From: an uncultured Chloroflexia bacterium
GTDB taxonomy: Bacteria; Chloroflexota; Ktedonobacteria; Ktedonobacterales; JADMIN01
Direction: 5' to 3'
Assembly: GCA_963718915.1 (NCBI GenBank)
Contig: CAVRAI010000013.1
Span: 1 to 32,000, forward strand
Length of the DNA stretch: 32,000 nucleotides
Both the position numbers and the translations under genes were made by a program. Under the pieces are notes generated by a model, which had not been told where the DNA came from, searched no databases, and saw only the letters and a program-made list of their open reading frames with translations. The stretch's first letter is position 1. Each line of letters starts with the position of its first letter. Shown piece after piece: positions 9,518 to 20,436 of the stretch.

Positions 9518-10113
9518 GTGAATGTCACGCGGTCGGCGGGCGTGGCGTCGGCCCCTGAGCAATCTGCTGCTCCTCACATCACGCGGGAAATCACGCGGGC
9601 GGTGCTGCCGTGCGAGATTCGGATCGTGGACGAGGAGAAGCGCGAGATCGAGTTGTGCGCCACGAGCGAGGCCAAGGACAGCTACGGCACGTCTTTGGCT
9701 ACGATGCCAGCAAAGACGCCTTCGACCGCTGGGCCGGGAACGTGCGTGAGATGCACAACCGCGTGGCTGTTGGTCGCCGGGTGGCTGTTCGCCACGACGA
9801 TGCCGCGCGCCGCATCTACGTCCGTATCCGTGTCAGCAAAGGCGCTCAGGATACCTGGGAGAAAGTCAAAGACGGCACACTCGCGGGCGCATCTATTGGC
9901 GCATCGGATGTGTTGTGGCAGAATCAGCGCATTGCGGGCGAGGATGTGCCGGTCGCCACACGCTACGATCTGGTGGAGTTGTCGCTCGTTGACCTGCCCT
10001 CGAACCCGGATGCGCTGGGCGTGACGTTCGTGAGAGCTTCGTTCGGGATGGCGTGCCGGATGATGAACTGCTCGCCGACCTGGAATCTACTGAAGTTGAT
10101 GCAGCCGGGATAG
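9518..10113 (+). pseudogene. HK97-family prohead (maturation) protease, frame-disrupted near 9690
   Basis: The N-terminal part sits in ORF 9518..10024 (..CEIRIVDEEKREIELCATSEAKDSYGT). The rest sits in ORF 9610..10113 (VFGYDASKDAFDRWAGNVREMHNRVAVG...GTLAGASIGASDV...YDLVELSLVDLPSNPDA). Restoring one G at ggcacg^tc joins them. Motif layout resembles Peptidase_S78. Confidence 0.8.
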
Positions 10114-11699
10114 CCGATGACCATTCCCAGGACAGTGCGCAGGCTCGCGCTGCCGCTACGGTGATACCTACGGCGGATACGTCAGACGCTCCGGCTGCCG
10201 CCAATGGCTCGTCCTCTGGCTCAACTACGTTCACCGAGCGGGATGGGTCGCTCTCGACGGAAGATCCCGCTGAACTGATCGCGCGCCGCCGCACTCGCAC
10301 GCGGCCAGTCGCAATTGGCGGATGGTTCGGGTTCGGCGTCTCTTACCGAGCCGACGGCTGTCTCGGCCAAAGCAAAACGGCTGGCCGCCCTTGGCGCTCC
10401 GGGCTACGTAGTGGCTGCGGATCGAGTTCTGTATCTGCCGCTGATCCGCTGCGGATGACGCGCGCGCCGCTACTCAGTCCAGCGCCGGGCGAGGGCGCCA
10501 CTGGCTACGGGGTGAATCAGCCCCTTGATATAGATGGCGACCATGAAGAGCCGGACGATTACGTCACCATTCAGTCCGGCCCCACGGCTGGCGCGGTCTT
10601 CGCTCCCTCGCCCGCTGAGAGCGTCGCGCATATGGCCCATGCCCACCACCACACCGGGCAGTACGACGACCCCAGCGATCACCGGGAGAGCAGCCCGCAC
10701 CAGCATCTCGACGGGACATCGCACGCGCATGATCATGTCATGGATCACAACCACGGCGGACATGAGGGCGTCCCGAACGGCCACACGCACCCGCATATCC
10801 ACGTCCCGGCCCATGACCATTACTTCCGCGTCGCCGATGGCTCCGCCACTGGATGCCAGACTCGTCACAGGCGAGCAGGCACGCACCCATGAATTCGTCA
10901 GTTCGGCTGCATTTCGCGCCGCTGGCGGCATCGAGGGCCAGCCTATGACGGCAGAGCAGTATCGTACCGCCGTCGCCGAAGAGCTTCGGATTATTCAATC
11001 ACTTCCTCAGACGCGCGCACTAGGGCCATACAGTCGGAATCCCGACGGGCCTGCCGATGCGGGGACGCCTGACGAGGCTCCGATCGCACCCTCAGAAGAT
11101 ATGGGTCAGACGCCAGATGGTAACGCTGGGGTTCCAGCTTTGGACATGGCGAACCTGGAAGAAGACCTGCGCCGCACAGGGCACTGCCCACTCTGCCACG
11201 GTCAGGTACGCGCGCTCGACCGCGACGGCAACCCAATCGCCGGGGCTGACGCCAACGGCGCGGTAGCAGGTGACGCGGGTAAGCGCAGGCCAGTCGGATA
11301 CCAGCGTGCCAGCAGACGGCTGGAATGGTCGCACGGTTGTCGCTGAACTCACGCGCGCCATGCAGGATACCATCAGGCCGCAATACGCTGCGTTGGCTGG
11401 TAGACTACAAGACTTCTCGGCACGTCTCGCCGCGTATCGAGCAGACGCCGCAATCGGGTGGCCCGGTGCTGCACGCCGCTGACCGTGGCTCAGCCTTCGC
11501 CGCCGGAGCTTCGGGTGGGTACGGTTCGGCAGGGCAGCCAAACGGCAATAGCCAGTATGACGCCCTCGCCGCGCTCGCCGGGAAGATCAAAGACCCGCAG
11601 GCGCAGACAGCGGTGGCCGCTGAAATGATTCGGATGCAGCAGGAAGCCGCTGGGATGCCCGCTGGATTCCAGGTGATGCCGCGCGCGGGAAATCGCTAG
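10053..11699 (+). CDS. Scaffold-like region (acidic N-terminus, His-rich tract, coiled-coil C-terminus); one or several genes, frame ambiguous
   Basis: Protein-like pieces lie in three frames: ORFs 10053..10892, 10534..11346, 11270..11482 and 11325..11699. Examples are ..AELTRAMQDTIRPQYAALAGRLQDFSARLAAYRADAA.. and ..YDALAALAGKIKDPQAQTAVAAEMIRMQQEAAGMPAGF.. Its position between protease and capsid fits a scaffold. Confidence 0.5.
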
Positions 11700-11708
11700 C
11701 CCGGCAGA

Positions 11709-11776
11709 AACGGTGGGGATCGAGGATCGCCCGGTCTGGATCGCCAGTTGGAGGGCCGCAGCCCGACACCTTCTGG
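11709..11776. repeat. Repeat family A, copy 2
   Basis: Matches 3088-3158. Lies immediately after the scaffold-region stop (11697-11699). Confidence 0.85.
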
Positions 11777-11886
11777 TTCTGGTTCTGGTCTGGTTCTAGT
11801 TCTGGTTCTGGTTCTAGGTTCTGCTTCTGGTTCTGCGTTCTGGTTCTGGTTCTGGTTCTGGTTCTGGTTCTGGTTCTGGTTCTGGT
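11771..11886. repeat. Hexanucleotide microsatellite (GGTTCT)n, ~19 units, the last ~10 perfect
   Basis: Read directly. Ends ~60 nt upstream of the capsid ATG (11947). Confidence 0.95.
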
Positions 11887-17949: not shown

Positions 17950-19301
17950 CTACCGCACAGTACAGAGCGCGGCGTGCGCCAGTGAGAAAGCCGCAAGGCA
18001 AAGGGAACCTGGAGTTCCAGTTGAACCCGCGCCAGTACGATTTCGTCTTCTCGCCGCGCGGTTCTAGCTTCTACGTCGGGGGACGTGGCGCGGGTAAGAG
18101 TTACGCGGGTGCGCTACGGGCCATCATCCACAGCCAGGAGTTGGCAGGTCAGCCTGGGACTGGTCGGCGCGCCCACCTACCCCATGCTGCGGGATGCCGC
18201 GCAACGGATGTTCTTCGAGCTGTGCCCACCCGCGCTGGTCGCTCGGCACAACAAGACCGAGAATGTCACCGTCATGCGCAACGGCTCAGAGATCCTCTGG
18301 CGTCCAGCCTATGAATACGACAGATACCGGGGACTCAACCTCGCCTGGTTCTGGCTGGATGAAGCGCCGTGGTGCGGCTACGACGCCTGGCAGATCCTCA
18401 AAGCGACGCTACGCCAGTCGGGCTACCAGACGGCAGCCTGGGCCACCGGCACTCCACGCGGGCAGAGATGGCTACGCCAGAGACTTCGAGCTGGCCCCGC
18501 AGGAGAACCAAGCCTGTACCGGGCCAGTACACGAGCCAACGCGCACAACTTGCCAGCGGGGTTCATCACTGACCTGGGCTATAGCGGAGCCTTCGCCGAT
18601 CAGGAGATCGAAGGGCTGTTCGTCGCCTTCGACGGATTGGTCTACCAGTTGGACGCCACGGAGAACGGGCAATCTGCGCACAGGCGCAACCGGACGGCTG
18701 ACTATAACCGGGTCATTGGTGGTATCGACTGGGGCTACACCAACCCGACCGCTCTCTTGGTCTTTGGCCTCGACGGCGACAAACGCGCCTGGCAACTGGA
18801 CGAGTTCTATCAGCGCCGGGCCAGCCAGGAAGAAGTCGTACGGCCAGCGTTGGTCAAGCTCACCAGGCAGTACAACGTGGCCGTCTGGTACGCCGACGCC
18901 GCTGATCCCGAAGCGATAGATGGGGCCAACAACGCCCTGGCTCGAGCTGGGCTACAGTGCCGCGTACGCGCCGTCCAGAAGGGCGCTGGCAGCGTCAGGG
19001 CGGGCATCCAGACCGTTACATCGTTGCTCGCGCAGAGAGGCGACGGGACACGCGGACTCTACGTTGACCCAGGTGTGTCAACACCATCGCCGAGTTTGGC
19101 AGTTACGCCTACGCCACGATGGAACGGGCGAAGCGCGATGCCGCTGAGGAACCGATCAAGCAGAGCGATCACGCGCTCGACGCATTGCGCTACGCGCTGC
19201 ATACGGAGCTTGGGCAGGCGACGGCGGTGGAGGCGTATCTCCACGAGATGGGCAGACTGGTGAAGCCGAAACCAGAGACACCGGAGGGCTATTTCAGATG
19301 A
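17946..19301 (+). pseudogene. terL: Large terminase subunit, two frame disruptions (~18153, ~19069)
   Basis: Walker A FYVGGRGAGKSYAG lies in ORF 17946..18314. ORF 18085..19263 carries LGLVGAPTYPMLRD, Walker B LAWFWLDEAPW and nuclease motifs GIDWGYTNPTALLVFG and WYADAADPEAI. The C-terminal motif CVNTIAEFGSYAY..EPIKQSDHALDALRYALH lies in ORF 19119..19301. Confidence 0.9.
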
Positions 19302-19888
19302 GCATGCGATCACAACTAACGACAGCAGGCAGTCGCACAGCAGCAGTCACACCAGCTCAACGAGCGGCGCAGAAGGTACACGTAGAAGTGACCGGTGTTT
19401 CAGGCAACGGCGAGTTCATGGCAGCACGGTGGATTGCTGGGCAGACGCCGAACTGATGGCGCGGCACCCACTCGACGGATCGCCATGGACGCGGCTACCC
19501 ACAATCAACGGTGGTCGGACTATACCGGCAGCGGGCATCGGACGCGCACGGAGAGAACCTGCATGGCATACTATGGCTCGCCTGACGGGATCAGCGCGCA
19601 CAAGCTGGACGCAGCAAGGCGCAGGTCGTGAAGTCGTGACACGGACGAGATCACGCTGGCATCGTCCGCACGAGGCCATCAAAGAGGCGATGCTGGCGGG
19701 CCAGACGTCATCGCCTACCTGGGCCGGGCGCACTGGCTCCCTACAACGAGCGGGGCGTCTACGGCCACTTCATTGCGTTGGGTGGCATCGATAGCGACCT
19801 GGGCTATCTGGTCGGTGGCGACGACGTGAACGCGTGGGCGGCCATGGGACGATTGGGTCATACCCGTGGCGGTGGTATGGCTGGATGA
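19298..19888 (+). pseudogene. Papain-like (C39/NlpC-type) cysteine peptidase region, lysis candidate, heavily frame-disrupted
   Basis: ATG 19298 overlaps the TerL stop (ATGA). Pieces in three frames: ..GNGEFMAA.., ..VDCWADAELMARHPLDG.., ..EAIKEAMLAG(R)PVIAYLG.. and ..NERGVYGHFIALGGIDSDLGYLVGGDDVNAW.. (Cys...His layout). Confidence 0.35.
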
Positions 19889-19965
19889 GTCGGTCGCGGC
19901 GGGAAACGGCATGATCGCCATAGCGAAAGTGTGGGTGGGGACTAAGATGCCCAAGGTGCGCGAAC

Positions 19966-20436
19966 GTGAGCAACATTCCGACTGGCTGGAAAGACGACGG
20001 GAAGACACTGGTGGCGCCCAACGGTGTGCCGGTGGTGCATGGGTTCCGCGACTATATCATGGCGCGTTCGTGGGCGGCGAATAATACGCCGCTGGCCGCG
20101 GAGCAGAGCATCACCAGCGGGAGCATCGAGCCGGGGAATGCTGCGGTTGGGTGCGGGTAGCCGACAAGATTTCCGGTTTACCTGCCTCGGCTGGACGCAG
20201 GCGTGGAATGTCTACGAGATCGCGGTGGGCCAAGACATCCGCGCGCTGGAGCAGCAGCTGGCCGCAGCCAATGCCCACGTCGCGCAGTTGGAGCAGCAGG
20301 TCGCTACTCTTGTCACATCTCGCCAGCGCCAGTGCCAGTCGTAACGCCGCCAGACCCCAAAGCGATTGAGGCGTTAGCGGCGTTAGCAGAGTTAGCGAAG
20401 GCGCTCAAGTTGGTCACACCATTGGTGGCTGCGTAG
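19966..20436 (+). pseudogene. Hypothetical late protein (globular N-terminus, coiled coil, hydrophobic C-terminus); two frame slips (~20155, ~20335)
   Basis: GTG 19966 follows AAGGTG; MSNIPTGWKDDGKTLVAPNGVPVVHGFRDYIMARSW.. It continues as ..FRFTCLGWTQAWNVYEIAVGQDIRALEQQLAAANAHVAQLEQQVATLV.. and then ..PVPVVTPPDPKAIEALAALAELAKALKLVTPLVAA. Confidence 0.45.

Follow-up and report, generated by a model that had tools for sequence, protein, structure and literature searches.

A tail-less phage head and packaging element in uncultured Ktedonobacterales, possibly dependent on tails supplied in trans

The stretch of DNA analysed here (the window) comprises 32,000 nucleotides of an uncultured member of the Ktedonobacterales (Chloroflexota; contig CAVRAI010000013.1, assembly GCA_963718915.1), and its positions 1–20,436 constitute a single phage-derived element of about 20.4 kb. 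In this element a minus-strand early arm (1–8187) is followed by a plus-strand head and packaging module (9.5–20.4 kb), in which the genes are ordered protease-scaffold-capsid-membrane-membrane-adaptor-stopper-portal-TerS-TerL-peptidase-last gene. It therefore encodes a complete prohead set (protease, scaffold, HK97-fold capsid and portal), the proteins that fill the head with DNA (TerS and TerL) and those that close the portal vertex and make it ready (adaptor and stopper). We tentatively read it, with a little less than even confidence, as an integrated, tail-less, capsid-forming element of a Ktedonobacterales-specific family which needs long tails to be supplied in trans. A head-only element had already been proposed in an initial annotation made from the sequence alone, and that proposal is supported here, and strengthened, by an intact and conserved layout maintained under purifying selection in several genomes.

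Profile searches (PHROG and Pfam) gave no match to tail, tape-measure, baseplate, fibre or integrase families for any open reading frame (ORF) of the window, including the ORFs at 13.6–15.4 kb and 19.3–20.4 kb, which were checked for tail components, and megablast against isolated phages returned no match for the window. Pfam searches on whole-frame translations were too diluted to help beyond the terminase. The gene content and landmarks described in the initial annotation (capsid stop at 13490, portal start at 15737, TerL end at 19301) were recovered, as was its account of the region after TerL, where a peptidase region and one more gene are followed, right of 20.4 kb, by non-phage genes of host type.

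That the same searches are able to detect tails in this group of proteins is demonstrated by distant homologs from IMG/VR (portal 37–53%, capsid 32–42%, adaptor and stopper 32–39% identity), which have the canonical gene order. In two of these (L077 and L078; related loci are given as L numbers throughout) the gene after the stopper encodes a Neck1/tail-completion protein (phrog_5), and a 780-aa tape measure (phrog_991, 3e-60) comes three unassigned genes later; tail genes, if present in the element, would therefore have been seen. The closest isolate, Thermoanaerobacterium phage THSA-485A (capsid 25%, portal 31%), likewise carries a tape measure and further tail genes, together with a serine integrase, none of which is found in the window. 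Taken together, THSA-485A and L076–L078 share homologous capsid (25–42%), portal (31–53%), protease, adaptor and stopper proteins with the element and differ from it in their order, TerS-TerL-portal-protease-capsid-neck. In the lineage of the window it is portal-TerS-TerL that occupies the spot where the tail block of these distant relatives begins, and this lineage is thus descended from long-tailed phages.

The tail-less order is not peculiar to the window: at least seven further loci from uncultured Ktedonobacterales have it, with their genes intact. Homologs of the capsid form more than 200 clusters, among which more than 80 full-length homologs (about 470–520 aa) are 69–82% identical to it, and the named sources of these are all uncultured Ktedonobacterales metagenome-assembled genomes (MAGs); all relatives considered here are MAG or metagenome contigs. 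The same order from protease through peptidase occurs in L001/L017 (within the complete genome CP126532.1), L002 (a forest-soil contig), L003, L020/L080, L061 and L047 (a long-read MFD contig in which several module genes are broken as in the window), and in these loci portal-TerS-TerL come directly after the stopper. Pairwise comparison of intact full modules gave ratios of nonsynonymous to synonymous substitution (dN/dS) of 0.07–0.38 at dS values of 0.8–3 for capsid, adaptor, stopper, portal and TerL (0.18–0.38 for the adaptor), and the tail-less state is thus an old and maintained one. The adaptor and stopper, whose only known role is to ready the portal vertex for a tail, are likewise still constrained. 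Tail loss is thus older than the divergence of the group, which leaves the other possibility raised in the initial annotation, a prophage that lost its tail block, unsupported as a recent accident, and because related genomes retain the tail-less design, the tails are probably made elsewhere. The genes flanking the full module differ in every genome examined; an ABC-transporter neighbour shared by several loci was considered as synteny and dismissed as paralogy only.

Two further loci are recorded for completeness. L003 (IMG/VR, 16 kb) holds the full head-to-TerL module without early arm and without peptidase; its left flank contains a 132-aa gene, related to a gene of L033 that appeared transposase-like by eye only, and a 398-aa gene, and a PQQ-repeat family gene stands immediately after TerL. 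In L004/L005 (IMGVR_UViG_3300005573_001593, 87.5 kb) an N-terminal piece of the capsid lies at one end and an inverted TerL gene and a capsid gene without its N-terminus at the other, the contig being rearranged or chimeric.

The left border was established through the closest relative. A homolog of the 487-aa membrane protein gene of the early arm led to L063, the left part of the contig that carries L002, where this homolog is followed by a 114-aa gene, the last of that element, and then by host genes (ABC transporter, signal peptidase, redoxin, MauE and a large regulator). The homolog of the 114-aa gene in the window is the left-end gene (378–46), so that by this comparison the element begins right at the window edge and a tail block on the left side is absent in that relative, whose whole element (~23 kb) contains no tail genes.

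Identification of the individual module genes (Table 1) relied largely on intact homologs. The joined capsid sequence matches phrog_13692 from end to end (1e-48) and is 81–82% identical to intact homologs of 505–507 aa, and for an AlphaFold model of a capsid homolog Foldseek returned the SU10 capsid as top match, followed by HK97 and other HK97-fold shells. The portal is 85–88% identical to that of L002, which itself bears Pfam Phage_portal, and TerL is 82% identical to the intact TerL of L002, which carries Terminase_6N, 3C and 6C. In some relatives the scaffold is fused to the protease (a 797-aa fusion in L001). What had been called a gp6-like connector is a head-tail adaptor, and the ORF described as head-tail-joining-like has the SPP1 gp16/XkdH stopper fold: the AlphaFold model of the family (pLDDT 90) matches SF1141, the Douge connector, PBSX XkdH, the phage Chi neck and SPP1 gp16 in Foldseek with probabilities of 0.99–1.00 and TM scores of 0.48–0.60, on which grounds the 104-aa protein is identified as the head-closure stopper. 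Searches of PDB sequences with adaptor, stopper and capsid profiles gave nothing, and stopper and capsid were resolved only by structure prediction. The three small membrane ORFs reported after the capsid gene are really two genes, the second split by a frameshift; a homolog has a weak match to the holin family phrog_443 (E 0.013), and the two proteins are possibly holin-like. The gene of L002 in the peptidase position carries Peptidase_C39_2 (5e-5), and the papain-like peptidase of the element is a possible lysin; the lysis region of THSA-485A likewise contains a papain-like peptidase, which has no detectable relationship to that of the window.

Table 1. Features of the window, with the evidence for each
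Feature	Position	Strand	Evidence or remark
Left-end gene	46..378	-	tblastn 65% to L063 11416-11760; weak repressor-like match phrog_3949 E 0.009
487-aa multi-pass membrane protein, C-terminal HTH-like tail	401..1864	-	70% identical to L063 460-aa gene
DnaA_N-like small protein	3311..3778	-	Pfam/tblastn
DUF3560 protein, split over two frames	3849..4860	-	Pfam/tblastn
Four early-arm genes	4949..7087	-	tblastn to L002 left arm; no PHROG, Pfam or PADLOC function
SWIM-type zinc-finger / zinc-ribbon protein, first early-arm gene	7114..8187	-	alignment, tblastn; conserved in other family elements
Divergent intergenic control region with 10-12-nt tandem repeats	8188..9514	.	sequence repeats
Prohead (head maturation) protease	9515..10268	+	phrog_9427 1e-25; tblastn to L002; split over three frames
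Scaffold-like protein	10530..11696	+	tblastn to L002 8764-9921 and L001 797-aa fusion; four frames
Major capsid protein, HK97 fold with inserted beta domain	11947..13490	+	phrog_13692; frameshifts near 12490, 12685
Two small membrane proteins	13633..13905; 13981..14231 (one frameshift)	+	tblastn
Head-tail adaptor (308 aa in relatives)	14377..15332	+	phrog_442 2e-6 on intact homolog; three frames
Head-closure stopper (103-104 aa)	15424..15737	+	AlphaFold and Foldseek; one frameshift near 15670
Portal	15737..17250	+	phrog_2662 2.5e-43; split over three frames
Small terminase TerS (helix-turn-helix, HTH)	17309..17949	+	tblastn; weak HTH_23 match in homologs; three frames
Large terminase TerL	17946..19301	+	weak Terminase_6C and Terminase_3C matches, two frames; split over three frames
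Papain-like (C39-like) peptidase region, badly frame-broken	19350..19950	+	motifs read in three-frame translation
Last gene of element (151 aa in relatives), hydrophobic C-terminus	19975..20436	+	tblastn 67-79% to L002 17910-18365
SDR gene segment, outside element	25018..26132	-	94% DNA identity to cargo gene in L002 early arm
Possible relic of 3' end of another element's last gene	29893..29934 (42 nt)	+	26-nt motif exact match to L002 last gene

On the reading preferred here, the TerS and TerL of the element would, after induction, package DNA into the element's own heads, and the adaptor-stopper neck would then dock onto pre-assembled long tails encoded elsewhere. The likeliest source of such tails would be a co-resident or co-infecting siphovirus or myovirus, which would make the lifestyle that of a satellite, similar to that of a capsid-forming phage-inducible chromosomal island (cf-PICI). 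Control of the switch would fall to the small DNA-binding proteins of the divergent arm, and the membrane proteins and the papain-like peptidase may aid release. Mobility is suggested by the variable flanks, by the early arm travelling with the head module and by the possible remains of a second element described below.

A number of observations weigh against this explanation. No helper phage or tail locus was identified among the relatives, which were examined as individual loci. Pfam and PHROG searches revealed no integrase in the window, in the relative's element together with its left flank or in the other relatives, and neither the window nor any relative yielded an excisionase, primase/replicase or HNH gene. 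Direct and inverted repeats flanking the relative's element are all 12 nt or shorter, with no att site found, and no tRNA target for the element was found, the window itself containing no tRNA genes. Scans of IMG/VR with TerL and capsid produced only one contig with this layout, which has host-like flanks, and no terminal-repeat genome with it. Reduced clusters of the same genes, considered below, stand at syntenic chromosomal sites, which is domestication-like rather than parasitic, and possible holin-like genes (on the weak match mentioned above) sit uneasily with a cf-PICI, for which holins are excluded by definition.

SatelliteFinder defines cf-PICIs by 11 core components and by the absence of tails and holins (PMC10085698). 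The element possesses the structural half of that set, with the seven components for structure and packaging (TerS, TerL, portal, protease, capsid, adaptor and connector) all present and with no tail genes in searches validated by the distant relatives; it is also chromosomally integrated, about 20 kb long and predicted to combine its own heads with foreign tails. To this extent the comparison with cf-PICIs made in the initial annotation holds. It fails for the other half: no integrase was found at either end, and an AlpA/MerR/Stl-type regulator and a primase-replicase were searched for and not found, the early arm offering only weak repressor-like, DnaA_N-like, SWIM zinc-finger and DUF3560 proteins, while HNH was not seen. 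Furthermore, the proteins of the element are unrelated in sequence to the cf-PICI profiles, its portal and terminase genes come after the neck genes, it has possible holin-like and lysin genes, and its host belongs to the Chloroflexota, with no helper known. By analogy, the element would work in the manner of a cf-PICI, but it should not be classified among them. Neither does it correspond to a tailed temperate prophage (Caudoviricetes), since both the tail module and the integration module are missing.

In addition to the full module, several reduced gene sets occur in the Ktedonobacterales. The most elaborate of these is a six-gene cluster of protease(-scaffold), capsid, YGGT membrane protein, adaptor, stopper and a 193-aa protein, without portal and terminase, which in several species is flanked by the same acyl-CoA synthetase and EEP genes; dN/dS in these clusters is 0.09–0.43 (capsid 0.09–0.19), and they are vertically inherited within the lineage. 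Examples are L033, L036, L039, L042 (about 8.5–15 kb) and L050 (about 0–5 kb, contig end), and also L038, L040, L041 and L043. Stand-alone protease-capsid pairs are found amid host genes for kinase, PQQ, DoxX, cellulase and glycosyltransferases (L007–L013/L023, L024, L027, L029, L056), the subgroup L024/L027/L029/L056 being syntenic. Capsid dN/dS over the pairs and the capsid-adaptor-stopper clusters is 0.06–0.20, and among the pairs one exact protein is present on 20 contigs. Portal-protease-capsid sets in host context were found as well, as were lone TerS-TerL pairs in host-like context (L088, L089, L090, L093, L094, L116), 55–63% identical to the TerL of the element. Full and reduced clusters occur together in at least five MAGs, and a capsid tree places the reduced forms, on shorter branches, inside or beside the full-module sequences. 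Some individual loci deserve mention: in L082–L084 (7.3–10.3 kb in L082) an unrelated 491-aa protein replaces the capsid before adaptor and stopper, the stopper being present on 24 contigs; in L034 (6826–9783) and L049 (4211–7693) a protein of 985–1160 aa, with Laminin_G_3 and CBM in L049, stands right after the head or neck genes and could be a fibre-like or surface protein; and L093 lies on a 605-kb contig, listed as the longest bearing the stand-alone capsid protein P0022.

These reduced sets provide the basis for the main and serious rival explanation, which we nevertheless consider rather unlikely, namely that of a domesticated system resembling a gene transfer agent (GTA), with head, neck and packaging genes kept for host use over several loci, tails, if any, encoded elsewhere and the window containing the most complete locus. 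The resemblance to GTAs of the RcGTA type is considerable, since in both cases purifying selection maintains, within one lineage (here one bacterial order), a head and packaging cluster of phage origin that has no integrase or replication genes, and related genes are found at other loci; portal- and terminase-less clusters lodged between the same host genes in several species, together with the protease-capsid and lone TerS-TerL pairs in host context and the co-occurrence of full and reduced clusters in genomes, fit this explanation well. Known GTAs, which package random pieces of host DNA smaller than their own cluster, however, keep their tail genes within the head cluster and have no early arm, whereas the element has an early arm but lacks tail genes, and a tail locus for it is not known. 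Syntenic vertical inheritance characterises the reduced clusters only: the full module stands in a different context in each genome, beside a variable early arm typical of mobile phage-like elements, and a possible second-element relic adjoins it in the window. The element thus lacks those GTA features that could be assessed. A broader proposal would have the multi-locus, vertically inherited head-gene set devoid of nearby tail genes represent an undescribed domesticated capsid system of the Chloroflexota, either GTA-like or a tail-independent DNA vehicle or compartment, and the 20-kb element its complete, still mobile form; all components of the set (protease-capsid pairs, capsid-adaptor-stopper clusters and lone TerS-TerL) are intact and the first two are under purifying selection, and we regard this proposal as unlikely on present evidence. 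That the capsids themselves, filled with DNA and closed off by adaptor and stopper, act as tail-independent carriers of DNA, for example by uptake or between the cells of the mycelium, is highly improbable: tail genes were not seen beside any of more than 60 family loci (a negative that covers the surroundings of these loci) and the neck genes are retained even in portal-less clusters, but we know of no precedent for such particles, and from the fold matches and SPP1 biology the gp16-type stopper is not known to serve as anything but a docking platform for long tails.

Another explanation is suggested by the state of the window sequence itself, in which nearly every module gene is spread over two to four reading frames, a point missed by the initial annotation. 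Mapping of intact homologs from L002 onto positions 9.5–20.3 kb of the window gives at least 17 junctions (10035, 16576, 17020 and 19072 among them), and these could be taken, along with the missing integrase and the many truncated relatives in other genomes, as signs of a defective prophage, a temperate siphovirus minus its tail and integration genes that is now decaying. Assembly indel errors are the likely cause of the frameshifts, because flanking host genes are broken in the same manner (one shift in the SDR gene; an AHSA1-like gene at 26.6–27.05 kb split), because nonsense codons are nearly absent (5 of 4482 aligned codons) and because dN/dS between window and L002 (0.12–0.30 for head, neck and packaging genes) is the same as between intact copies, with no excess of nonsynonymous change. 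Other long-read MFD MAG loci show the same breaks, and in most contigs from short reads the genes are unbroken. A link of the errors to homopolymers was tested as an explanation and set aside; since the junctions lie mostly outside homopolymers, which is a point in favour of genuine decay, assembly error is inferred from the other evidence. As the frameshifts are most likely assembly errors, the window copy is probably intact, and with the same tail-less order intact and under purifying selection in at least seven other loci, a decaying remnant is improbable. We give hardly any credence to the idea that the phage is complete and tailed, with its tail genes outside the window or too diverged for recognition. 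Most early-arm genes have no assigned function and the left border was derived through L002/L063; however, host genes directly follow the left-end gene in that relative, no early-arm protein has the length of a tape measure, elements differ in their early arms but have conserved structural genes, the tail genes of distant relatives are readily detected and the right flank consists of host-type genes.

The early arm comprises about ten genes. As the initial annotation had it, these are small regulatory proteins or proteins without assigned function, and PHROG, Pfam and PADLOC searches gave no tail, integrase, replicase or defence match among them; PADLOC found no defence genes in the right flank either. 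The families SWIM, 83-aa, MutS_I-like (its homolog in the window being the gene at 5860–6405) and DUF3560 travel with the head module, the arm being otherwise variable between elements. The 487-aa membrane protein has 63 homologs and belongs to a family that is common in Ktedonobacterales mobile DNA and can be regarded as a general mobile-DNA gene of the lineage; in L085 (a 184.8-kb contig) the different island that contains it also has tyrosine integrases, TIR and Mrr-ParA genes and two HTH_17 excisionase-like genes. Tandem repeats of 12 nt at 9087–9169 were considered as origin iterons, a reading that was dropped because similar short repeats fill the intergenic DNA, host and element alike, of all related loci. 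Perfect intergenic tandem repeats of 9–13 nt are numerous in the window (at 2828, 4966, 6365, 8454, 9087, 22766, 24294, 29663 and 31109), and this habit looks lineage-wide rather than element-specific, because related loci share it. A (TTCTGG)x19 array is located at 11771–11886, between the scaffold and capsid genes, and the base composition of the window is ~61% G+C.

Right of 20.4 kb the window contains host-type genes (ABM, SRPBCC, LEA/KGG, SDR) and two pieces resembling parts of L002 (Table 1). One of these is the segment with the SDR gene (~25161–25942), which differs by a single frameshift near 25785 from an intact protein with which it shares 96.7% identity; the other is a short relic of a last gene. 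The window's own element is 66–77% identical to L002 in nucleotide sequence, which is below the identity of both pieces, and the way in which these are ordered and oriented agrees with a second element, mostly deleted, beside the first. They may therefore be the relic of such an element, although the SDR gene alone could be explained by host-gene capture. The same flank holds an 89-aa gene ending in ...KRWMLDVCQD, with an intact copy at 27928–28197 (minus strand), a broken copy at 21205–21471 and 3' fragments at 20687, 24223 and 28965, all within 9.5 kb right of the element.

In conclusion, we know of no isolated phage of this phylum of soil bacteria (Chloroflexota). Most of the known capsid-forming satellites and GTAs come from Proteobacteria and Firmicutes, and a few satellites come from Actinobacteria (PMC10085698); a full-text literature search retrieved nothing comparable for the Chloroflexota. 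The findings carry two warnings for the use of MAGs, namely that "defective prophage" calls can conceal functional systems and that frameshift-ridden long-read sequence can mimic pseudogenes. A tail-less head element conserved in the Ktedonobacterales would carry tail piracy, or the domestication of capsids, into a further bacterial phylum, with an unrelated set of proteins and without the canonical integrase-regulator-replicase half, and the graded series from full module through neck-only clusters to capsid-only pairs, in which the reduced clusters tested are under selection, would constitute a natural experiment on the co-option of phage heads.

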